Source of the DNA: an uncultured Deinococcales bacterium
GTDB lineage: Bacteria > Deinococcota > Deinococci > Deinococcales > JAAFIG01
Reading direction: 5' to 3'
Length of the DNA: 10,314 nt
Assembly: GCA_964247135.1 (NCBI GenBank)
Contig: CAXTTL010000175.1
Span: forward strand, 1-10,314
The position numbers were made by a program, and so were the translations under genes. The notes beneath the pieces were generated by a model that saw only the letters and a list, made by a program, of their open reading frames with translations, searched no databases and had not been told where the DNA came from. Each line of letters opens with the position of its first letter. Position 1 is the stretch's first letter. Of the stretch, positions 31 to 10,239 are shown in pieces.

Positions 31-489
31 ATGCCCATCCTTTTTTACGGAACTCGAGAAGTCCCTTACGGCTGCTTCTCGAACTTCAGCGCCCACAAAT
101 TCAAGCTCGAGAACATCGAATGGCGCACGAGTGAGCATTACTTTCAAGCCATGAAATTCTATCCGCACTGGGATCACATTAATGCCCTTCGCGCCATGCC
201 AAGCCCCATGCAGGTTGCCAAAGCGGGACGCTCGAGAGCCAGACCACTGCGCCCAGACTGGGAACAAGTCAAAGACGACATCATGCGGGCTGCCGTGCTC
301 GCCAAATTCTCGCAAAACCTCAAGATTCAAAACGTGCTGCTCGAGACTGGAACTGAAGATTTAATTGAGAACACCACGCACGACCATTACTGGGGTTGCG
401 GCAGCACTGGAACGGGAAAAAACATGCTCGGCATTATTTTGATGGAAACCCGAGAGATACTGCGCTCGAGATTGGAGAACAAAACATGA
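31..489 (+). CDS. NADAR family protein (YbiA/RibX-like N-glycosidase, COG3236), 152 aa
   Basis: Motifs YGCFSNF, WRTSEHYFQAMKF, RPDWEQVKDDIM..AVLAKFSQN, LLETG..DLIE, YWGCG..GTGKNMLG.ILMETR are typical of NADAR. SD-like AAGGA at 18-22. Confidence 0.93.
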   Translation: MPILFYGTREVPYGCFSNFSAHKFKLENIEWRTSEHYFQAMKFYPHWDHINALRAMPSPMQVAKAGRSRARPLRPDWEQVKDDIMRAAVLAKFSQNLKIQNVLLETGTEDLIENTTHDHYWGCGSTGTGKNMLGIILMETREILRSRLENKT

Positions 490-1370
490 ACCCATTACAA
501 CGCGCTCGAGTGAGTCTTGAAGGTTTATCAATTGGTGATGCCTTTGGGCAGCAATTCTTTTTCACCAATGGCGTTTATGAAGCGATAGCTGAACGTCAAC
601 TCCCCTCAGCGCCTTGGTATTACACCGACGACACCATGATGGCGTTCTCAATTTATGACTCGCTCGAGAATCACGGTTGCATTGATGCAGACAAATTGGC
701 GTTGATGTTCGCAAAACGCTACACCAATGATCCCGCTCGAGGTTACGGCGGCGGAATGCACGATACGTTGCGAGCAATTCAAAAAGGTGAACATTGGCAA
801 AAAGTCACAACACAAGCCTTTGGAGGTATGGGTTCATTCGGAAATGGTGCTGCCATGCGAGTTGCACTCCTGGGCGCATATTTTGCAGATGGTCTCGAAC
901 GGGTGGTTTCTGAAGCCACACTTTCGGCTCGAGTGACCCACGCACACATGGAAGGCATTGCAGGTGCGATTGCAGTAGCGGTTGCAACAGCCTTAGCGCA
1001 ACAAGGTCAAGTTATTGGCAAAGAATTCCTTGAGAAAGTCATTGAACTTACACCTGACAGTGAAGTGAAAAGCAAGCTGGCTCGAGCAACAAAGTACACA
1101 GAATACACTCCTATAGAAACAGCCATTCATCAACTTGGCGTGGGTTGGGGAGTCTCGGCACAAGATACAGTTCCATTTTGCATTTGGTGTGCTTCAAAAC
1201 ACCTCGAGAATTTTGTTGATGCCATGTGGTACACGGTCAGCGGTCTTGGAGATCGAGACACCACTTGCGCGATTGTCGGCGGCATTGTCGCGGCTCGAGT
1301 TGGAATGGAAGGCATTCCGAACGCTTGGCGTACTGCTAGAGAAGATTTGCAAATTTGGGAATCAACATGA
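486..1370 (+). CDS. ADP-ribosylglycohydrolase (ARH/DraG family), 294 aa
   Basis: GDAFG, YTDDT, GNGAAMR, VTH and GDRDT metal-binding motifs are all present. Start moved from the ORF-track 396 to ATG 486 (ATGA overlap with the NADAR stop, GGAG at 474-477). Confidence 0.93.
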   Translation: MNPLQRARVSLEGLSIGDAFGQQFFFTNGVYEAIAERQLPSAPWYYTDDTMMAFSIYDSLENHGCIDADKLALMFAKRYTNDPARGYGGGMHDTLRAIQKGEHWQKVTTQAFGGMGSFGNGAAMRVALLGAYFADGLERVVSEATLSARVTHAHMEGIAGAIAVAVATALAQQGQVIGKEFLEKVIELTPDSEVKSKLARATKYTEYTPIETAIHQLGVGWGVSAQDTVPFCIWCASKHLENFVDAMWYTVSGLGDRDTTCAIVGGIVAARVGMEGIPNAWRTAREDLQIWEST

Positions 1371-1816
1371 AATACATCCAATGCCCCACCGAATACAACC
1401 CGCACCACCTCGAGCCAACCCTTTTTCTGGCGGGTGGAATCTCGAGTTGCCCAGATTGGCAAACTGAATTGACTGCAAAACTCGTGCGCACGAATTGGAC
1501 TGTTCTCAACCCGCGTCGAACAGATTTTGATGCAGAAAACTCGAGCTTGGCAATTCAGCAAATTGATTGGGAGTTTCGGCATTTGCGGCTTGCCAGTGCA
1601 ATCGCGTTTTGGTTTCCACCGCAAACACTTTGCCCGATCACCTTGTACGAATTGGGTGCGTGGAGCATGACGAACAAGAAGCTTTTTGTGGGTGTTGACC
1701 CGAATTATCAGCGCCTTTTGGATGTCAAAATTCAAACCCAACTCGCTCGTCCTGATGTTGTTGTGCTCGAGTCGTTGACGGATTTGGCTGATGTACTCAT
1801 AGGAGGTATTTTATGA
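1367..1816 (+). CDS. Nucleoside 2-deoxyribosyltransferase-like protein (NDT fold, Nuc_deoxyri_tr2-like), 149 aa
   Basis: LFLAGGI..CPDWQ, VLNPRR, QQIDWE and CPITLYELG (putative catalytic Glu). Start at ATG 1367 overlaps the upstream TGA (ATGA). Confidence 0.85.
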   Translation: MKYIQCPTEYNPHHLEPTLFLAGGISSCPDWQTELTAKLVRTNWTVLNPRRTDFDAENSSLAIQQIDWEFRHLRLASAIAFWFPPQTLCPITLYELGAWSMTNKKLFVGVDPNYQRLLDVKIQTQLARPDVVVLESLTDLADVLIGGIL

Positions 1817-2427
1817 ATATTTTAGGACTCGAGATTCCGCAATGGTTCTGGGATTACTCTGGCTCGGTGGCGGTGGTTGTTTCGCTGGTGTACCTGTTCA
1901 AAAAGCACATTGCGTACTGGCATTGGTCGAATCTTTCTGTCGTGCCGTTCTTTATTTTGTTCGTCGCTCAGGGCGCGTGGTTGTTCGCGGGACTGCAAGT
2001 TTCGTACCTAATTTTTGGCATTCACGGTTTGTACTTGTGGTTTCTCGAGCAACGCCGCGACAGGGGAGAGATTCGTTTTAACGAACCCGCTTGGTACGCC
2101 GTGACCTGGGCGGTCAGTCTGGCGATTTTTGTTTACACGGTGTACCTGACCGATTTTTCCAACCCTTGGAATTGGTTGCAATTCGCCATTGTCGGCATTC
2201 AGTTGATTGCCAATTTCGGCACGACGCGCAAATGGACTTGGAGTTGGGCGGTTTGGATTCTGACCAACATCATGAGCGTTGTTTACTTTTCACACGCGCA
2301 AATTTGGGGTCAGTTTGGTTTGCAATTTATACTGATTGCACTGTCAATCAAAGGTTGGATGGACTGGGCAAAGGATGACAAGCAACTTGAAACTCGAGGT
2401 TTAAACCGTGTCGAAGCTGTTTCGTAA
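1813..2427 (+). CDS. pnuC: PnuC-family transporter, probably nicotinamide riboside, 204 aa
   Basis: Hydrophobic Trp-rich multi-TM protein with internal two-fold repeat (KKHIAYW...GLYLW / RKWTWSW...GWMDW) and a WxxW motif. AGGAGG at 1801-1806, ATGA overlap, directly upstream of a NadR-like gene. Confidence 0.85.
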   Translation: MNILGLEIPQWFWDYSGSVAVVVSLVYLFKKHIAYWHWSNLSVVPFFILFVAQGAWLFAGLQVSYLIFGIHGLYLWFLEQRRDRGEIRFNEPAWYAVTWAVSLAIFVYTVYLTDFSNPWNWLQFAIVGIQLIANFGTTRKWTWSWAVWILTNIMSVVYFSHAQIWGQFGLQFILIALSIKGWMDWAKDDKQLETRGLNRVEAVS

Positions 2428-3379
2428 CGGTTTGGTGGTTGGAAAGTTCGCGCCGCCGCACAAGGGGCATCAATTGCTGCTCGAGACAGCCTTAAATCAG
2501 TGCCAACAAGTCACGGTGTTGGTCTACTCAAACCCAGATTTCCCGAACATGCCTTCCAAAACCCGAGCAGCCTGGATTCTCGAGTTGTACCCGAACTTGC
2601 GGGTGATTGTGCCAGAAAACCCGCCGCACAACGACGCGGACGATTTCACGCAACGCGAGTTTATCAAAAAATTTCTCGAGCGAGAAAACATTGCCCTTGA
2701 TGTGGTGTTCACGAGCGAATCTTACGGCGCAGGATTTGCAGCGCATTTGCAAGTGGAGCACGTACTTGTTGACCTCGAGCGCGAACAAATCCCAATTTCA
2801 GGAACTCGAGTTCGGCAAAATATTCATGCGAACCGTGAAATGCTTGACCCAAAAATCTACAAGCATTTTGTGCAAAAAATCGTCTTTATGGGCGCGGAAA
2901 GTACAGGCAAAAGCACCTTGACCGAACGACTCGCGCTCGAGTTTCAAACCAATTTCGTTGCCGAGTACGGACGTGAAGTTTGGATGCAAAAAAATGGGAT
3001 GCTCGCGCTTGAGGATTATGTTTACATCGCCAAGCATCACCAACAACTCGAGGATGCGGCGCTTCCCGAGTCGAACCGATTTTTGTTTGTGGACACCAAC
3101 GCGATCACGACCATGTTCTGGTGTTATGCCTACGAAGGTGCTGGACTTCCAGAACTCACAGATTTGGCTCGAGTTGCCGAATTCCGTTACGATCACGTGT
3201 TTGTTTGCAACGACGACATTCCATTTGTTCAAGATGGGTGGCGCGACGATGCTGTTTGGCGCTCGAGGCAGCAAAGTATAATCTTGTACGATTTAACCGT
3301 TCGGGGCGTACCGTTTACGTTGGTCAGCGGGTCGCTCGAGGAACGGGTTACTCAAGTTAAAGCGCTGTTGGATTTGTAG
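2408..3379 (+). CDS. nadR: NadR-type bifunctional NMN adenylyltransferase / ribosylnicotinamide kinase without HTH domain, 323 aa
   Basis: N-terminal nucleotidyltransferase GKFAPPHKGH (HxGH) and ISGT motif. C-terminal P-loop GAESTGKST, EYGR, FVDTN, DIPFVQDGWR. GTG start, GAGG at 2396-2399, 20-nt overlap with pnuC. Confidence 0.9.
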   Translation: MSKLFRNGLVVGKFAPPHKGHQLLLETALNQCQQVTVLVYSNPDFPNMPSKTRAAWILELYPNLRVIVPENPPHNDADDFTQREFIKKFLERENIALDVVFTSESYGAGFAAHLQVEHVLVDLEREQIPISGTRVRQNIHANREMLDPKIYKHFVQKIVFMGAESTGKSTLTERLALEFQTNFVAEYGREVWMQKNGMLALEDYVYIAKHHQQLEDAALPESNRFLFVDTNAITTMFWCYAYEGAGLPELTDLARVAEFRYDHVFVCNDDIPFVQDGWRDDAVWRSRQQSIILYDLTVRGVPFTLVSGSLEERVTQVKALLDL

Positions 3380-3553
3380 GGGTGCTGCTGCTGCTTGATC
3401 CCAAGACGCACCTGTCTTGCCCTTAAAGCAGCACCTTGCGGGCTTGGGTGCTTCGGGCAGGATCGCTTGACCATTAAAATGCACCTTCTTGAACCTAAGC
3501 GTGCACCTTGCGGCAGGTTCGCTCACGGGCATGGTCGTTCGCTGCGCCCTTGC
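3376..3553. repeat. Structured intergenic element: imperfect terminal inverted repeat enclosing two degenerate ~72-nt tandem units (REP/MITE-like or ncRNA)
   Basis: GTAGGGGTGCTGC (3376-3388) pairs with GCTGCGCCCTTGC (3541-3553) at 12/13 positions counting G-U. GCTTGA at 3393/3465, GCACCTTGCGG at 3431/3503 and CGGGCA at 3454/3526 are each 72 nt apart. Confidence 0.6.
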
Positions 3554-3555
3554 GT

Positions 3556-5349
3556 TTATTCGCTGCTCGAGAGGACTGCCAAGAACGCCTCTTGCGGCAC
3601 TTCGACGGTACCAATGTTTTTCATGCGGGCTTTGCCTTTTTTCTGTTTGTTCAACAGTTTTTTCTTTCTCGAGATATCGCCGCCGTAACATTTTGCCAGC
3701 ACATCTTTGCGGTATGCCTTGACGGTGGCTCGAGCGATAATCTTACCGCCAATCGCGGCTTGAATCGGCACGGCAAACATTTGGCGCGGGATGACTTCCG
3801 CCATTTTCTCGACAATTTTGCGTCCCAAAGGGTCGGCTTTGTCTTTGTGACAAATGATCGCCAGGGCGTCCACGATGTCGCCGTTGACCAAAATGCCGAC
3901 CTTGACCAGGTCGCCCTCACGGTAGCCAATCTGTTCGTAATCCATGCTGGCGTAACCCCTGGACAGACTCTTCAAACGGTCGTGAAAGTCGTAGAGCACT
4001 TCGCCGAATGGGACTTCGTAACGCAGCTCGACGCGTTTGCCGATGTACTGCATGTCTTTCATCACGCCGCGTTTTTCGACCAGCAACTGCATGGTGCTGC
4101 CGACGTATTCTTCGGGCAGGATAATGCTGAGTTTGATGTACGGCTCTTCGATGCTGTCCACGCGGTCCATCGTGGGCAAGCCAGACGGGTTTTGCAGTAA
4201 ATAACTCGAGCCGTCGGAAAGGTTGATTTTGTAAATTACACTCGGTGCGGTGGCGATCAAATCCATGTCAAACTCGCGCTCGAGCCGTTCTTGAACCACT
4301 TCGGCGTGAAGCAGTCCCAAAAATCCGCAACGAAAACCAAAGCCCAGCGCCTCGGAGGTTTCAGGCTCGAAAGTCAACGCGGCGTCGTTGAGTTGCAGTT
4401 TCTCGAGCGCCTCGCGGAGTTTTGGGTATTCGGCGGTGTCGGTGGGGTACAAGCCGCTGAACACCACGGGTTGCGCGGGTTTAAAACCAGGGAACGGTTC
4501 GGCGGTGGACCGCATAAAACCGGTCACGGTATCGCCCACTTGGGCGTCGTGAATGTCTTTGATCGCCGCCGTAAAAAACCCGACCTCGCCAGCCTCGAGC
4601 ACTTCTGAAACCTCGAGCGCGGGACGGAAAACGCCGACCTTATCGACTTCGACGACCTTGCCCGTGTTCCACATTTTGACCTTGTCGCCGCGTTTGATGC
4701 TGCCCTCGAGCACCCGCACAAACGGAATCACGCCCTGGTAGGCGTCGAAGACCGTGTCAAAAATAAGTGCTTTTAAAGGTTCGCTGCTGTTGCCGCTCGG
4801 CGGCGGAATGCGTTTGACGATGGCTTCCAGAATCTCGTGAACGCCAATGCCCGATTTGGCGCTGGCGAAAATCGCGCCGTCGGCGGGAATGCCGATCACT
4901 TCCTCGAGTTCGCGGGCGGCGCCCTCGGGGTCGGCGGCGGGCAAATCGATTTTGTTGATGACCGGAATGATCTCGAGATTACTATCAATTGCCAGGTACG
5001 CGTTGACGATGGTTTGCGCCTCGACGCCCTGCGAGGCATCGACCAAGAGCAGCACGCCCTCGCAGGCGGCAAGGGACTTCGAGACTTCATAGTTGAAATC
5101 GACATGCCCTGGGGTGTCAATCAAATTCAGGGCGTACTCTTGACCGTCGTCGGCGGTGTAAGACAAGCGCACGGGCGTCGCCTTGATCGTGATGCCGCGT
5201 TCACGCTCGAGTTCCAGGGTATCTAGGGTTTGCTCGCGTTTGTCGCGCTCCGACATTCCCCCCGTCAACTCGAGAATCCTGTCCGCAAGGGTGCTTTTGC
5301 CGTGATCGACGTGGGCGATAATTGAGAAATTTCTGATTTTTTCAAACAT
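3556..5349 (-). CDS. lepA: Elongation factor 4 (LepA), 597 aa
   Basis: [54 protein letters not shown] and C-terminal [31 protein letters not shown]. Confidence 0.99.
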
Positions 5350-5421
5350 ATTTTGGCTTTCAAATGGTTTAGGTTGGCTCGAGAATATTTCAGTTTATTA
5401 TGATCAATTTGTTTGGATCTT

Positions 5422-5449
5422 GTAGGGGTGAACCTTGTGTTCACCCTTG
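5422..5449. repeat. REP-like palindrome with GTAG foot
   Basis: GTAGGGGTGAAC-CTTGT-GTTCACCCTTG: perfect 8-bp stem GGGTGAAC/GTTCACCC (5426-5433/5439-5446), extendable with wobble pairs, in the lepA divergent intergenic region. Confidence 0.6.
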
Positions 5450-5635
5450 ATGACGGCGATTTTAAGTTTTGTGCGAAATTGAATTGAATCGTCTCGAATG
5501 TAAACAAAACACATGCCTGATTCGTCAGGCTCGAGAAGTGTACCATTTTGGCGCGAAGACATTTGTAAGTTTTTAAGATTGAGGCTTTTGGCACGTTTGT
5601 AATCGTTTCGACACACGTCTAATCCGTTTCGCGCC

Positions 5636-5641
5636 TAGAAT
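5636..5641 (+). promoter_or_regulatory. Putative -10 element (TAGAAT) for a leaderless or short-leader transcript
   Basis: TANNNT hexamer 8 nt before ATG 5650, with no Shine-Dalgarno sequence. Confidence 0.45.
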
Positions 5642-5649
5642 CTTGCGCA

Positions 5650-6969
5650 ATGCGTCGCTGGTTTTTCGTCACTTTTTTGACGTTTTGCACCTCGAGTTTT
5701 GCGTCCGCGCTCGGGTGGGACGTTAGCGTGCCTGGCGCGAGGGCGAGGCTGGGTTTTGGCGGCGGTTTTTTTGTCGGCGCGTGGTCAGAACTCAGGCTCG
5801 AGGTGTCTGGCGCGGGTGCGTATCAAGTGCATTTGGATTCGCAATCTGGACGTTACCGCGACGGTTTCAAACCTTTAACAGCGACGTTGAGGGTCCCTGA
5901 AGGTTCGGGCGTGCGGGTTCAAACACTTCAGATTCCCCTCTCAAATCATGTTGCGAAACTCAGGCTCACAGGCGAGGCAGGCTCTCAAACCGTGACGCTC
6001 GAGCCTTTTGATTCGGCAATGGCAATCAGTGTCACTGACGGCGTGGCGGGTGCTCGAGGGAATTCGTTTGAACTCTCGAGCGACGATCTGCCAGCCAACC
6101 CGGCGCTGTTGTTGGGTGTGCCCGAAGTGGTGGTGGGCAACAATCTGGTGCCGCCCGCATCGTTGCTGGCGGCGCTGGCGGCGGGTTCTCGGGTATTTAT
6201 GAAGCCCGGGAACCAAATCTTGCCAAAACTGAGCGGCGCCATCGGTTTGGGCAGGCTCGAGCGCGACCCTGCAAGCAGCCGTTTGCCCGCCACCGTCAAT
6301 TTGGAAGCCCTGGCGCGATCTTTGGTGCCAACGGTAGACGTTCCACCTGGACGGCACACCTTTTTGGGCTGGTGGGCGGTGGCTGGTTTTGTGGTAGGCT
6401 TGGGAATTTTCAGTGCGCGTCGGACCGAGCGTGCTTTTGTGATCGGTTCGGCAGCTTTCATGTTTTTGTTCGGTATGGTCGGTTTCTGGGCGTTTGCGCC
6501 ACAAACCGCTTTCACCCAAAACACGACGCAAGTTTTGATCGGCGCTCGAGGTTGGGGTTTAAAAATGAATCTGGTGTCAAGGTTTGATTTGCAAGCCTCG
6601 ACGGTCGCCTTGCCAATGGGTGCAAAGTCTTTGACTGGCGAATCCCTCGAGTACCTGACCGACCGAGTCAACCTCAAAACTTTGGCTTGGCAAAAGCATT
6701 CGTACCTGCTGCCGCCGGTGGTCGGTGCCGTATCGCTGCGGGTTGTGAATCAAAGAATCGAGAACATTGGCAGCCAAATGTTTAGTGAAATTCAGGTGGT
6801 CGGTTCCGGCGTTCAAGAACCCATCGCTCCAGGGAAAAACGCCAAAATATCGCAAACCGGTTATTCCAGCCAGTTCAATTTCGAGGCTTTGCCCATCGGT
6901 TCGGTGGTCGGCAAGGTCAAAGGCGTGCCAGCCAAATTCGTGATTGCCCTACCCGAGGACACCCAATGA
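5650..6969 (+). CDS. Hypothetical exported/membrane protein, 439 aa
   Basis: N-terminal signal peptide (MRRWFFVTFLTFCTSSFASA), two central TM helices (FLGWWAVAGFVVGLGIF; FVIGSAAFMFLFGMVGFWAF), long ORF, ATGA-coupled to the next gene. Confidence 0.8.
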   Translation: MRRWFFVTFLTFCTSSFASALGWDVSVPGARARLGFGGGFFVGAWSELRLEVSGAGAYQVHLDSQSGRYRDGFKPLTATLRVPEGSGVRVQTLQIPLSNHVAKLRLTGEAGSQTVTLEPFDSAMAISVTDGVAGARGNSFELSSDDLPANPALLLGVPEVVVGNNLVPPASLLAALAAGSRVFMKPGNQILPKLSGAIGLGRLERDPASSRLPATVNLEALARSLVPTVDVPPGRHTFLGWWAVAGFVVGLGIFSARRTERAFVIGSAAFMFLFGMVGFWAFAPQTAFTQNTTQVLIGARGWGLKMNLVSRFDLQASTVALPMGAKSLTGESLEYLTDRVNLKTLAWQKHSYLLPPVVGAVSLRVVNQRIENIGSQMFSEIQVVGSGVQEPIAPGKNAKISQTGYSSQFNFEALPIGSVVGKVKGVPAKFVIALPEDTQ

Positions 6970-7526
6970 TTCACCATCCATTTGATGATGTGCAACTTTC
7001 CAAACCTGTGCCGCCGCCACGGAACCCCTTGCCTCCAGCCTTGCAACTCGAGTTGGCGTATCAAATGGTGCTGGTCGGCTGTCTGATCGAAATGCTGTTG
7101 ACCGTTTTCTTGTCACCTCGAGGTGAGGCAAATGCGCCTGTGGTCTTTCAATCGGTGGCTGCCTTTCGGGCTTTGGTGTTGCTGGGCTTGACGCTGCTGG
7201 TCTTGCCTTACAAAACCCGTGTTGTTCTGCCCGCCCTGCTAATCTGGGCAGCCATGTTGTCCGCCCCAGAATTGTGGGCGTTTGCGCTCGAGGCTCGAGC
7301 GGGAATGCCGTTGAGTTTGGTCGGAACGCCGCTGTTGGCGCTCGGCATTCAGGCGAGTTTTAGGTTGCATTCCAAACTTGGGCTGGTTTACTTGGGGCTG
7401 CTGCTGGGCAGTGTGCTCTTGCCCACAGCTTGGAATGCGTTTTTCAGCATGGTTCAACCCGCAATCCCAATATGGCTGATCATCTCGAGTCTCATGTGTT
7501 TGGTGGCATACTGGAAGGACGCATGA
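6966..7526 (+). CDS. Hypothetical integral membrane protein, 186 aa
   Basis: About 5-6 hydrophobic segments. ATGA overlaps at both ends (6966-6969 and 7523-7526). Confidence 0.75.
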   Translation: MIHHPFDDVQLSKPVPPPRNPLPPALQLELAYQMVLVGCLIEMLLTVFLSPRGEANAPVVFQSVAAFRALVLLGLTLLVLPYKTRVVLPALLIWAAMLSAPELWAFALEARAGMPLSLVGTPLLALGIQASFRLHSKLGLVYLGLLLGSVLLPTAWNAFFSMVQPAIPIWLIISSLMCLVAYWKDA

Positions 7527-8905
7527 TGTTACTTCGATCACCTGAACTCCCCAAAGGCTGGACACACCAGGTTTTAAGCCTCCATCGAACTTGGCATTTG
7601 CGGCGCGTTTGGCAATGGAAAGCCCGAGCGGTGGCGGCGCTGACTGTGGTGGCATTGATTGCCGTCATCTTGGGCGCAGATAAACGCTGGTTGCTCGCCA
7701 GCGTGCTCGGTGTATTGCTGCCCGCCCCTCACCCGAAAAGCCAAACGTTGCTCGAGATCGAACGCGCCCAAGGCGAAATTTACACCACGGCGCTGGTCGC
7801 GCCCGAAGATTCGTTTGGTTTTTCAAAACGTCTGCTCGAGGGTGCGAAATACGTCGTTCACAAAGCCCAACTGCCTGCCCTACCTTGGCTCGAGGGACTG
7901 GGAATTTTGCTGCTGGCATCATTGGCGTTCGTGATTCCCGCCCAAAACGCAAGTTCACAAGACAATGCCTTGGCGGTTGCACCAACCCCAACCGAGCAAA
8001 GCCTCAACAATCCCTCGAGCGACCCACAAGCCGCGCCGCCAGTCTTGAACGCTCCCGCGTCTGGAGCTGCGCCGCAAGCCGGGCAGGATGCCGCCAACGG
8101 CAAACCGGCTTCTGGCGGAACACCAGGCGAAAGTGGTGTCGGAGAGTCAAGACCAGGCGGTGGCAATGCCAGCGACGACCCCGCCGCCGTCAGCCGAGAT
8201 TACCTCGAGGCGCTCGAGCGCGGCGCGGTGAAATCACAGGATGGACAGCAAAAAACGGGCAACAATGCCAAAAAAGTCGAAGACCTCAACTCGAGCAAGA
8301 CCGACCAAAACGGTAAAGGTCAGTCGGGTGCGAATGGGCAAAGTTCACAAAATGGACAAAACGGCAAGCCAGGACAAAAACCAGGTTCAGGACAGCAAAA
8401 CAACGGGCAGCAAGGGAAAAACGGACAGCAAGGACAGAACGGACAGCAAAATGGTTCTGGTAACCCATCAAACCCGAACGGTTCAGGCAAGCAAGGGCAG
8501 CAGAACCAAAACCCGAGCGGCAAAAACGGGCAAAAAAATGGGTCTAGTTCGCAAAATGGCGCAGACCGTTTTGATCGCGGTGAAAACAGCGACACTGGCA
8601 GCTTCCCAAATCAATCGCCCGAAAATCAAGGTCGCAGCCAACCAGGGCAGGCGGGACGCGGCGGCGGCTTGGGCAATCGTTTGAACGGCACGAACGCCGC
8701 CAAAAATGGCAAACTCGAGTACCTTCCAGGTCAAGTGCAAGGCAGTCAAGTGCGAAGCGGCGCAATGCAACTGCCAGGTGATCCACGACGACCACTCACC
8801 CTGACCCCAGGCACGCCAGCCTATCAACGCGCTGTCGAAAATGCGGTGCTCGACCCGAGGTTGCCACCCGAATACCAAGAAATGCTGAAAAATTATTACA
8901 AGTAA
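7523..8905 (+). CDS. Membrane-anchored protein with a long G/Q/N-rich disordered region and a conserved-looking C-terminal tail, 460 aa
   Basis: Start moved to ATG 7523 (ATGA overlap). Two to three N-terminal TM segments, GQQ/GQN repeats, C-terminus LPPEYQEMLKNYYK. Confidence 0.8.
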   Translation: MMLLRSPELPKGWTHQVLSLHRTWHLRRVWQWKARAVAALTVVALIAVILGADKRWLLASVLGVLLPAPHPKSQTLLEIERAQGEIYTTALVAPEDSFGFSKRLLEGAKYVVHKAQLPALPWLEGLGILLLASLAFVIPAQNASSQDNALAVAPTPTEQSLNNPSSDPQAAPPVLNAPASGAAPQAGQDAANGKPASGGTPGESGVGESRPGGGNASDDPAAVSRDYLEALERGAVKSQDGQQKTGNNAKKVEDLNSSKTDQNGKGQSGANGQSSQNGQNGKPGQKPGSGQQNNGQQGKNGQQGQNGQQNGSGNPSNPNGSGKQGQQNQNPSGKNGQKNGSSSQNGADRFDRGENSDTGSFPNQSPENQGRSQPGQAGRGGGLGNRLNGTNAAKNGKLEYLPGQVQGSQVRSGAMQLPGDPRRPLTLTPGTPAYQRAVENAVLDPRLPPEYQEMLKNYYK

Positions 8906-8907
8906 TT

Positions 8908-8916
8908 TGTTAACAT
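8908..8916 (+). promoter_or_regulatory. Putative extended -10 promoter (TGnTAACAT) for a leaderless transcript
   Basis: TGT-TAACAT ends 6 nt before ATG 8923. No SD in the 17-nt intergenic gap. Confidence 0.5.
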
Positions 8917-8922
8917 AACTTC

Positions 8923-9324
8923 ATGAACCCGCTTCAAGCCGTGCAACAAGGACTCGAGAAACTCAACCCGATCCCGCAACCTTTAAGGGTTTTGATCGGC
9001 TCGAGTTGGTTCTGGCTGGCGGTATGGGTGGCGTTGTGCGTTGGCGTGGCACGTTACTTGTTTGGCGAAAGACTCGGCGCTTGGCTTGGGTTAAGCATTG
9101 CTGCCATCAGTTGGTGGACTTTTGTGCCCGGTGGACGCGACGAATTGACCATTGCCATCATCGTGTTTGTTCTCGCGCAAGTGCTTGGTTTAATCTGGTC
9201 GCGCTCGAGCCTGACCGCAGGCGCTCGAGGGGTGAAGACCTGCCCAGACTGCGCCGAAGAAGTTAAATCTCGCGCTCGAGTTTGTAAGCATTGCGGGTTT
9301 GAATTTCATGCGAAAAGAGTTTGA
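8923..9324 (+). CDS. Small membrane protein with C-terminal zinc ribbon (UPF0547-like), 133 aa
   Basis: Three TM segments followed by KTCPDCAEEVKSRARVCKHCG (CxxC...CxxC). Confidence 0.85.
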   Translation: MNPLQAVQQGLEKLNPIPQPLRVLIGSSWFWLAVWVALCVGVARYLFGERLGAWLGLSIAAISWWTFVPGGRDELTIAIIVFVLAQVLGLIWSRSSLTAGARGVKTCPDCAEEVKSRARVCKHCGFEFHAKRV

Positions 9325-9455
9325 ATCCGAGGGAATGGCAACGTTGATTGCCAAAGCGTTCACTGAAATTCGTATGACTTTGTGTAAGAAATTTCCAGTC
9401 TGAAACCATATCTGAAAGAAATTGATAAGATCGTTAACAGAGTGGAGATTAAAAA

Positions 9456-10190
9456 ATGGTTGAATCGCCAAGAGCCACAAAAGGTTTGAATCTAAAAAAC
9501 AGTCTGCCACAGTTTAAAATTCTGTTTTTCCTCTTGGCGATTGATGCGGTATCTAAATTGATGGCATTTTCATTTTTACCGCCGAATCAGATTCCGAATC
9601 CATCAGCAGTGCTTCAACTGGTCTTAATAGTGAACTATGTTGGAATAGGTACTTATGGAAAGAACGTCATCGCCGCTGGAGGAAGCAATATCGTTTCTCT
9701 AGCCCCAATTTTTTCTTTACTACTGGGCGTTTTTTTGTTGATTGTTGGTTATTGGCGACGGCTTTCGAGTGTCGCCGTGGCGTTCTGCATTGGTACGGCG
9801 TTGCTCGCCAGTTTTATTGTTTTTCTGGTTTTACCAGGCGGTACTCAAGTTTTTGCCAATTCGATTTTGCCTTTAAGAGCCGCGCAATGCTTTCTATGGA
9901 TTGTTATTTGGATATTGGTTTCGCACAAAATTTGGAAAGTAGGTGCTTTGTTGTTCGTTTCTGCTGCCATTGGAAATTTCTTGTCGTTGTTTTATCCACC
10001 AAATTTTATTGTCGATTTCATCTGGTCAGCCCCGTTTAGTCGATTGACAAGAACGGGCGTATTTAACCTCGCTGACGCATTCTGGGATGTTGGGATTATT
10101 GTTTTTTTATGTGCGTTCGTTTTCAGTATTGCAGGGTTTTTCACAAAACGTTCAAAGTCCGCACCTGTGATTGTTGATATTGATCCCTAA
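9456..10190 (+). CDS. Atypical signal peptidase II (LspA/peptidase A8-like), 244 aa
   Basis: IDAVSK, AAIGNFL, IVDFI and VFNLADAF correspond to LspA motifs, including both catalytic Asp. GGAG at 9444-9447. Longer than canonical LspA. Confidence 0.75.
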   Translation: MVESPRATKGLNLKNSLPQFKILFFLLAIDAVSKLMAFSFLPPNQIPNPSAVLQLVLIVNYVGIGTYGKNVIAAGGSNIVSLAPIFSLLLGVFLLIVGYWRRLSSVAVAFCIGTALLASFIVFLVLPGGTQVFANSILPLRAAQCFLWIVIWILVSHKIWKVGALLFVSAAIGNFLSLFYPPNFIVDFIWSAPFSRLTRTGVFNLADAFWDVGIIVFLCAFVFSIAGFFTKRSKSAPVIVDIDP

Positions 10191-10211
10191 ACACCAATCT
10201 CGAGCCATAGG

Positions 10212-10239
10212 AAAAACCCCACTCATCTCTCGAGAGTGG
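10212..10239 (-). terminator. Possible intrinsic terminator for a convergent gene
   Basis: CCACTC/GAGTGG stem (10219-10224/10234-10239) followed on the - strand by GG and a 5-U run. Confidence 0.35.

Follow-up and report, generated by a model that had tools for sequence, protein, structure and literature searches.

The question raised by this 10,314-nucleotide stretch of DNA from an uncultured Deinococcales bacterium (hereafter the window, which is one whole contig, C175, of the source assembly) is why a single six-base palindrome, CTCGAG, should occur in it so often. We counted 72 sites, the first at position 53 and the last at position 10229, whereas 200 dinucleotide-preserving shuffles of the same sequence contained 1.75 sites on average and never more than 7. 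A preliminary description of this DNA, made from the sequence alone, had given exactly this count and these first and last positions, and had proposed that CTCGAG is a highly iterated palindrome (HIP) that some system of the lineage creates or maintains genome-wide. The analysis presented here makes it nearly certain that CTCGAG is a real HIP of Deinococcota, maintained by a fixation bias at the level of DNA. As to the source of that bias, an effect of DNA exchange or repair is tentatively favored below.

The enrichment was not limited to one contig. The source assembly (G000; 5,091,702 bp in 386 contigs, 84% complete, 52.7% GC) contains 33,925 copies of CTCGAG, that is, one per 150 bp and 24.8 times the expectation from base composition, and no hexamer is more common in this genome. 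Sixty-two percent of all TCGA tetramers fall within CTCGAG, and the remaining NTCGAN words are ordinary or rare. The proposal of a genome-wide distribution was borne out, as every one of the 825 5-kb bins contained at least 8 sites; only 25 segments (~100 kb) were site-poor, with at most 5 sites per 3 kb. One stretch of 4.4 kb (G000:C238:1900-6300; 43.6% GC, 6 sites) has no called open reading frame (ORF) and is possibly an rRNA operon. When genes were called by a heuristic combining ORFs with codon log-odds (4,816 genes, 89% of the genome), the density was 6.56 sites per kb in coding and 7.47 per kb in non-coding DNA, the latter having a GC content of only 46%. About 88% of all sites lie within genes, where all three codon phases are occupied (18,612, 6,787 and 4,457 sites) and the phase that reads Leu-Glu holds 62% of the coding sites.

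This frame-independent enrichment, also part of the preliminary description, outlasted shuffles that preserve the amino acid sequence. When synonymous codons were shuffled within each gene, such that both the protein and the codon usage of the gene were kept, 4,068–4,151 sites remained versus 29,773 in the real genes, and the codon usage fed to this shuffle is itself already inflated by the sites. Shuffling the order of codons left ~1,750 sites. An order-4 Markov model, under which the excess was only 1.24-fold, was uninformative because it already holds the site's own pentamers. The choice of codons depended strongly on whether they could complete the word. CTCGAG encodes 18,556 of the 24,182 Leu-Glu dipeptides (76.7%), and CTC makes up 92% of Leu codons ahead of GAG versus 13–20% elsewhere. 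Likewise, CGA accounts for 83% of Arg codons in the xCT_G context (11–13% otherwise) and TCG for 88% of Ser codons in the C_AG context (15–20% otherwise).

Only the exact hexamer is favored. In non-coding DNA, the observed/expected ratio (O/E) was 36.6 for CTCGAG, 1.14 for its 18 one-off words taken together and 0.87–1.06 for words at larger Hamming distances. Among the one-off words, transitions reached 1.8–2.7, as expected of the decay products of so many sites, and transversions 0.27–0.95. The exact site was 16–56-fold more common in non-coding DNA than each one-off neighbor, a ratio from which we infer a scaled fixation advantage of ~3–4 per site. The three transition classes were about equally common genome-wide, in non-coding DNA and between congeners; thus, there is no deamination signature at the central CpG. 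The O/E of CTTGAG/CTCAAG was 1.17 genome-wide and 1.78 in non-coding DNA. Preferences at flanking positions in non-coding DNA were weak and symmetric (A at -3, 0.45; G at -1, 0.35; C at +1, 0.35; T at +3, 0.44), and palindromic 8-mers around the site were not preferred beyond the product of the two half-preferences. The data show DNA itself, rather than codons or the RNA reading frame, to be the level at which the force operates.

CTCGAG is, moreover, the single palindrome that escapes, and reverses, a very strong restriction-type avoidance. In the source genome, 28 of the 64 6-bp palindromes have an O/E below 0.1, and most of the GC-containing ones are near absent (GAGCTC, 0 copies; GGGCCC, 1; CGGCCG, 3; CGTACG, 5; GGATCC, 7). 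Each of the four GRGCYC (BanII-type) words has at most 6 copies, and GGCC occurs 380 times in total. GAGCTC is absent from the window as well; genome-wide, the TA dinucleotide has an O/E of 0.39 and CTAG of 0.07. Among the relatives introduced below, the number of palindromes with an O/E below 0.1 is like that of the source genome in G151 (27 of 64) and G150 (28 of 64), and it is 18 of 64 in G031 and 3 of 64 in G152.

Comparison with related genomes showed that maintenance is still operating and that the sites outlive their surroundings. In 238 kb of a congener (G005) aligned to the source genome at 84.7% identity, 1,313 sites were common to both genomes, 425 were present only in the source genome and 239 only in the congener. 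In coding DNA, 82%, 73% and 79% of sites were retained, depending on the phase, and in non-coding DNA 79%; control hexamers of the same class reached 43–44% (43% in non-coding DNA). The same codons were also better conserved within the motif than outside it (CTC, 0.85 versus 0.53; GAG, 0.85 versus 0.65; TCG, 0.82 versus 0.62; CGA, 0.75 versus 0.48), and the surplus conservation ended at the edge of the hexamer. According to the accessible part of Xu et al. (2018), this inside/outside codon test is the one applied there to HIP1, the iterated palindrome of cyanobacteria. Over larger distances, conserved Leu-Glu positions of lepA were written CTCGAG in 15–18 of 18 family genomes, the genera being 68–79% identical in nucleotides; since synonymous sites are saturated between genera, the pressure must be continuing. 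Lineage-specific sites in the lepA alignment were made with amino acid changes and without insertions or deletions (indels), and the codon alignment of this one gene has no gaps at 14 sites of the source genome, except in the poorly aligned N-terminus. With regard to sites as breakpoints of indels or recombination, none of the 51 indels of at least 6 bp in the 238 kb was flanked by sites, as seen within BLAST segments, which break at larger indels.

The fixation bias has enough strength to cause amino acid replacements. In the proteome of the source genome, no dipeptide is more over-represented than Leu-Glu (O/E 2.34, a surplus of ~14,000 pairs); the reverse dipeptide Glu-Leu has an O/E of 1.01, and Ser-Ser is also raised (1.61). 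The corresponding values in an outgroup genome (G031) were 1.04–1.09 for Leu-Glu and 1.10 for Ser-Ser. In 136 pairs of orthologs, only 148 of the 538 Leu-Glu-phase sites (27.5%) were also Leu-Glu in the outgroup, where the general dipeptide identity was 37%; the commonest outgroup states at these positions were Leu-Asp, Leu-Ala, Leu-Lys and Ile-Glu. Synonymous saturation, non-coding enrichment, extra conservation and amino acid replacements all support the central claim of the preliminary description, i.e., that something creates or maintains CTCGAG at the DNA level.

The same description had assigned the trait to "this lineage". The trait is indeed present there; its scope proved to be wider, with graded strength across the phylum and a reversal in a Deinococcus-like genus. 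In the family of the source genome (f1; 19 genomes in five genera), all 19 genomes are enriched, with 4.3–6.8 sites per kb. Recurrence in the 18 other assemblies of this family, and in other families, also disposes of an artefact absent from relatives. The phylum tally comprised 364 genomes, with rounded genome sizes (it includes one genome flagged as unpublished, on which no claim rests). In this set, a large Deinococcus-like genus (g7, family f3) avoids CTCGAG, with 26–1,372 sites per genome in 111 genomes. Another genus of f3 (g19) includes G150 (8.6 sites per kb), G151 (7.0 per kb) and their congener G152 (0.30 per kb), and G033 (f3, genus g15) has 3.6 sites per kb over its whole genome. 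Genera of families f5 and f2 reach 2–3.5 sites per kb. Overall, the trait amounts to 3–4 sites per kb in Meiothermus-like and other lineages. Samples of five genomes from outside the source family gave the following values:

G151, 92 kb: 7.23 sites per kb (O/E 28), 8.5 times the codon null; Leu-Glu O/E 2.33, with 302 of 366 Leu-Glu written CTCGAG
G150, 24 kb: 9.15 sites per kb, 5.95 times the codon null; Leu-Glu O/E 2.36
G033, 100 kb, 68% GC: 3.87 sites per kb, 3.5 times the codon null; Leu-Glu O/E 2.39
G190, 54 kb, 59% GC: 3.15 sites per kb, 4.1 times the codon null; Leu-Glu O/E 1.55
G152, 400 kb: 0.30 sites per kb (O/E 1.26), 1.25 times the codon null; Leu-Glu O/E 1.24 (neutral)

These samples confirm that G150, G151, G033 and G190 show the same phenomenon as the source family. 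G152, a 2.3-Mb genome in 5 contigs with the longest LepA branch, has lost both the enrichment and the avoidance of palindromes, and an earlier state of enrichment may have left a faint trace in its Leu-Glu O/E of 1.24.

The outgroup G031 (uncultured Deinococcaceae bacterium; LepA 79% identical) was the nearest named relative among the matches listed and is apparently identical with genome G131 of g7. CTCGAG occurs 27 times in its 2.4 Mb because every TCGA-containing word is avoided, a TaqI-type pattern; TCGA-containing hexamers have an O/E of 0.03–0.04 in this genome, and Leu-Glu is written mainly CTAGAA or CTAGAG. In a LepA tree, G031, G033 and the three g19 genomes were grouped (support 100/99), with support of 88/81 for g19 and 86/61 for f1. 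Because non-enriched lineages nest among enriched ones, the most economical history would be that of an old trait of graded strength which was lost or reversed in some lineages, although repeated gains also fit this single-gene tree. An f5 genome (G176) has a LepA 82% identical to that of a Meiothermus sp. record whose locus contains 2.05 sites per kb (O/E 6.2), and culturable Meiothermus-like relatives probably carry a moderate form of the trait.

Within the window, overlaying the site positions on ORFs and Pfam matches reproduced all per-gene counts given earlier. The use of three codon phases by sites 53, 106 and 231 follows from an ORF start at position 31, and the 5' G said to precede about half of the sites was found at 37 of 72. 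The sites are distributed as follows, the coordinates being the span of the sites unless an ORF is stated:

53..470, NADAR gene (ORF 31-489, Pfam NADAR): 5 sites (53, 106, 231, 340, 465)
505..1299, ADP-ribosylglycohydrolase gene (ORF and Pfam): 7 sites (505, 663, 736, 928, 1081, 1203, 1294)
1409..1771, nucleoside 2-deoxyribosyltransferase-like gene (ORF and Pfam): 4 sites (1409, 1441, 1540, 1766)
1828..2398, pnuC (ORF and Pfam): 3 sites (1828, 2044, 2393)
2480..3340, nadR (ORF and Pfam): 10 sites (2480, 2579, 2675, 2774, 2805, 2936, 3047, 3168, 3262, 3335)
3566..5274, minus strand, lepA (Pfam and family alignment): 13 sites, several of them at the Leu-Glu positions written CTCGAG in 15–18 of 18 family genomes
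5378..5535, intergenic: 2 sites (5378, 5530)
5691..6651, ORF 5650-6969 without a Pfam family: 8 sites
7047..7489, ORF 6966-7526: 5 sites, including a pair 7 bp apart (7287, 7294)
7751..8719, ORF 7430-8905: 8 sites, including a pair 9 bp apart (8204, 8213)
8953..9280, zinc-ribbon ORF 8923-9324: 5 sites
9456-10190 (ORF), plus strand, lspA-like (Pfam Peptidase_A8, 29.5 bits; GC of the region 0.452): 0 sites
10199..10234, intergenic pair (10199 and 10229, 30 nt apart) just 3' of a stop codon: 2 sites

The lspA-like ORF is the only site-free gene of the window and sits in its lowest-GC part. Positions 31-3379 hold the five co-directional genes of NAD and ADP-ribose metabolism, from NADAR to nadR. 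The four ORFs of 5650-9324 also share one direction (439, 186, 491 and 133 aa); three of them matched no Pfam family at a cutoff as loose as E 0.1, the last carries a zinc ribbon at its C-terminus, and the block is kept in congeners at 80–85% nucleotide identity. The gap between nadR and lepA (3380-3555) contains a dispersed small repeat of ~80–160 nt, which had 30 BLAST matches in the source assembly and has many further copies in every family genome. Its copies contained no CTCGAG in 2,015 nt, where ~13 would be expected, and thus are motif-free DNA, possibly young or mobile.

The spacing of sites was analyzed in the source genome. Gaps between sites had a mean of 148 bp and a coefficient of variation of 0.96, and no gap was exactly 6 bp, a distance that would create GAGCTC. 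The pair correlation was 0.23 below 15 bp and approached 1 by ~60 bp; from there to 1,500 bp it showed no oscillation that would indicate periodicity, multi-kb periods being out of reach with 386 contigs. The variance/mean ratio of counts was 0.80 at 100–200 bp and exceeded 1 above 1 kb. Close pairs were depleted in coding DNA (ratios 0.28–0.54) and near Poisson in non-coding DNA, in which pairs 12–30 nt apart were relatively common. Site density showed a twofold peak right after stop codons, with 13.9 per kb in the first 20 nt and 10.7 per kb at 20–40 nt, versus a mean of ~6.7.

What might generate such a bias? It is possible that CTCGAG is read by a protein of restriction-enzyme-grade specificity that is unrecognizable to family searches, and that the bias arises during the exchange or repair of DNA between genome copies or between cells, through a preference for DNA with sites at the step of uptake, of retention or of choosing the winning strand. 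This would be a molecular drive as proposed for the uptake signal sequences (USS) of Pasteurellaceae, the DNA uptake sequences (DUS) of Neisseriaceae and now HIP1, and not the work of an orphan methyltransferase combined with Vsr short-patch repair. We favor it because CTCGAG resembles uptake sequences in its even spacing, its frequency just after genes, its imprint on the proteome and its sharp clade boundaries, and because the route through a methylase and Vsr is without its genes and its mutational signatures. An uptake tag and a repair mark were also among the examples named in the preliminary description, and either may apply. The exchange or repair tag as a specific mechanism is tentative, with the odds somewhat against it; for the whole statement (a HIP, a fixation bias and an exchange or repair tag), our rough probability is 0.4.

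Several points weigh against this reading. No protein recognizing CTCGAG was identified in the searches made, and drive and direct selection cannot be told apart from word frequencies at equilibrium. Thermus and Deinococcus are considered to take up DNA irrespective of its sequence, and USS and DUS are non-palindromic, longer and 5–10 times sparser than CTCGAG. The apparent uniformity of the sites may have been inflated if composition-based binning of metagenome-assembled genomes dropped atypical DNA. We also considered concerted multi-nucleotide conversion: between the source genome and its aligned congener, 29% of lineage-specific sites versus 14% of controls had at least 3 base differences, an excess that is explicable by rate heterogeneity and is not diagnostic.

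A bolder form of the same idea, which we consider doubtful, is that CTCGAG might be an ancient, phylum-level "self-DNA code". The word would be read by a protein and driven to saturation (up to one per 110 bp), with ~14,000 dipeptides rewritten per proteome, and would flip to total avoidance upon gain of restriction that cuts TCGA or CTCGAG, as in the Deinococcus-like genus and G031. If true, this would be an independent second origin of the HIP phenomenon and the first non-cyanobacterial HIP system open to mechanistic dissection, the Meiothermus-like relatives being culturable.

The preliminary description had suggested, as one example, an orphan methyltransferase with biased repair. In this model, which is that of Elhai for HIP1, a CTCGAG methyltransferase together with methylation-aware repair would convert near-cognate words and thereby ratchet the count up. 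CTCGAG is a classical type II recognition word, restriction-modification enzymes typically show the all-or-none preference for one hexamer that is seen here, and most other palindromes are avoided. In cyanobacteria, alternate HIPs co-occur with cognate methyltransferases, as stated in the accessible part of Elhai (2015). The methyltransferase complement of the genomes analyzed here is also large and variable. In the source genome, a partial census (a regex prefilter gave 62 ORFs, of which 34 were kept and 20 submitted to Pfam) yielded 9 DNA methyltransferases, and G012 had up to 5 C5 and 9 N4/N6 matches.

Nevertheless, the enzymes that this model calls for did not emerge from the searches, which for several families covered the five best-assembled f1 genomes (completeness of the metagenome-assembled genomes in general, 57–94%). 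The XhoI-family endonuclease (PF04555) was found in none of the 19 f1 genomes and in 1 of 12 outgroup genomes (G021). The best match to M.XhoI in f1 was 47% identical over the C-terminal motif only, so no homolog was recognized there; the methylase next to the G021 endonuclease had homologs of 63% identity in two outgroups. Vsr was absent from all five of the best f1 genomes, and a PF01555 methylase from the single-contig complete genome G011. C5 methylases occurred in five of five f1 genomes and were mostly 23–45% identical across genera, with few closer pairs. Dam-like (D12) enzymes were patchy: group B (75–83% identical) was present in only 7 of 19 f1 genomes, with identities that do not follow phylogeny, and group A in 3 of 5. 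The gamma-class ORFs of ~500 aa were heterogeneous. Two enzymes of the source genome, the C5 enzyme L132 and the PF01555 enzyme L128, were rejected as candidates as they do not track the trait. Altogether, no methyltransferase ortholog common to all enriched genomes was detected among the C5, PF01555, D12 and ~500-aa gamma-class families, the specificity of such enzymes being unreadable from sequence. The model is further disfavored by the mutational data, which show neither a CpG deamination signature nor depletion of CTTGAG. We regard it as unlikely, yet as a serious rival. The suggestion of an orphan methyltransferase received no support from a census which, by its nature, cannot exclude an unrecognized enzyme. 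Judged by family matches, the searched families do not explain the trait, and the restriction-type diversity leaves room for such an enzyme.

Three further observations were made during these searches. In G021, which still has 1.7 CTCGAG per kb, a genuine XhoI-family endonuclease gene adjoins a PF01555 methylase (locus L111, G021:C1:73699-77256). In the source genome, a 1,502-aa ORF (L125, G000:C112:1671-6176) has an N-terminal N6-adenine methyltransferase (Eco57I/N6_Mtase) fused to an SNF2-type helicase, and its neighbor is a 5-kb site-poor stretch of short ORFs. NucS was rejected as the agent: it was strong in 12 of 19 f1 genomes and in 3 of 3 genomes of the avoiding genus g7, and was not found in G150 or G151.

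Direct selection on each site, an equally serious rival which we judge to be no more probable than the methyltransferase model, would act, for example, through binding of an abundant nucleoid, cohesion or repair protein or through an orientation-independent, Chi-like stop of end resection as double-strand breaks are mended in these polyploid, stress-resistant bacteria. Such selection would be consistent with the conservation of sites in non-coding DNA, the symmetric non-coding flanks, the population of every 5-kb bin and a spacing more even than Poisson below 500 bp. The joint loss of the trait and of palindrome avoidance in the small genome G152 would be expected under relaxed weak selection. 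However, DNA-binding proteins usually tolerate mismatches, and here one-off words gain nothing. Close pairs are depleted, no periodicity was seen up to 1.5 kb, and with 34,000 sites present, each could contribute very little. For a Chi-like role, RecC was found in none of the five f1 genomes and AddAB-like pairs in at most two of the five; large PD-(D/E)XK nuclease-helicase ORFs were present only in G005, with a weak match in G011.

A role at the RNA level, in which pairs of the self-complementary CUCGAG form terminator or stabilizer hairpins, is very unlikely. The raised density past stop codons and the non-coding pairs 12–30 nt apart would suit it, and the two copies at 10199 and 10229 of the window do pair in a predicted RNA fold, but this fold is no better than those of shuffles (z -1.59), most sites are genic and occupy all three phases, close pairs are depleted in coding DNA, and the enrichment is strand-symmetric by nature. 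Finally, the view that the enrichment follows from codon usage, from dipeptide content or from GC history, or is an artefact of assembly or binning, is excluded: the predominance of the Leu-Glu phase, the preference for CTC and GAG in high-GC relatives and the low Markov excess would agree with it, whereas the codon shuffles, the non-coding O/E, the dependence of CTC on a following GAG and an enrichment in more than 20 independent assemblies of several families refute it.

If the exchange or repair drive or one of its rivals is to be established, the phylum offers natural material. It contains on, intermediate, off and reversed states, including the within-genus contrast of G150/G151 and G152; gene families can be correlated with a continuous trait, and methylation, uptake bias and repair bias can be tested at the bench. 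The trait shows how far a DNA-level force overrides protein constraint, Leu-Glu having become the most over-represented dipeptide. In practical terms, composition-based binning, codon-usage models, detection of horizontal gene transfer and XhoI cloning behave abnormally in these genomes. A search of public sequencing runs with words of the window returned 5 entries from 2 studies, each with at most 0.07 of the sampled words and none listed as RNA. The literature searches turned up no description of CTCGAG being enriched in Deinococcota, Thermus or Meiothermus, although genomes other than cyanobacterial ones might be listed in the supplements to Elhai (2015) and Xu et al. (2018). The accessible parts of the HIP literature speak of cyanobacteria only, and CTCGAG methylation is mentioned, in the text portions available, for other organisms.

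How does this palindrome compare with known systems? Recombination hotspots of the Chi type depend on a RecBCD or AddAB reader, and here RecC is lacking in the five genomes searched and AddAB-like ORFs are not universal. Dcm/Vsr at CCWGG in E. coli is alike in that a methylation site becomes more frequent through biased repair. However, its over-representation is small (below ~2-fold) and it needs Vsr and a C5 methylase, whereas the genomes studied here had neither Vsr (0 of 5) nor a common C5 enzyme, and CTTGAG is undepleted. The XhoI/PaeR7I restriction-modification systems recognize the identical word with all-or-none six-base specificity, but their hosts avoid the site; here it is the commonest hexamer, and neither the XhoI endonuclease nor an M.XhoI homolog was found in f1.

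USS and DUS are closer. They too are family-level, genome-wide words that are spaced more evenly than at random, that often lie as invertible pairs just past the ends of genes and that have left an imprint on proteins. CTCGAG has the corresponding traits (a variance/mean ratio of 0.80 at 100–200 bp, 13.9 sites per kb past stop codons and a Leu-Glu O/E of 2.34), and its hairpin-capable pairs in non-coding DNA and weak, symmetric flanks are likewise reminiscent of USS and DUS. Molecular drive without a benefit per site can explain both. The uptake sequences differ in that they are 9–12 nt long, non-palindromic and present about once per kb, and their uptake receptors are known.

The analogy with HIP1 (GCGATCGC), already drawn in the preliminary description, is apt. 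HIP1, its alternate forms and CTCGAG are all short GC-rich palindromes, hyper-abundant in all frames and in non-coding DNA, which arise by substitution without indels and are better conserved than control motifs and than the same codons elsewhere. In both cases the trait is clade-wide, with exceptional lineages that are without the word. HIP1 differs in being an octamer of cyanobacteria, with a density of ~1 per kb according to the part of Elhai (2015) available, versus a hexamer in another phylum at up to 1 per 110–150 bp. Multi-kb periods have been reported for HIP1. On the CTCGAG side, one-off variants are not favored, no periodicity was seen to 1.5 kb, a conserved cognate methyltransferase was not found, Leu-Glu is doubled in the proteome and most other palindromes are nearly lost. 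HIP1 was discovered thirty years ago, and there is still debate on how it arose and what it does; a reading by drive or selection during DNA exchange or recombinational repair is now current (papers in bioRxiv, 2024, and GBE, 2026). With an independent and stronger example from another phylum, what had been one isolated case becomes open to comparative study. What appears to be new here is a denser, hexameric HIP in a second phylum, apparently independent of a conserved methyltransferase.

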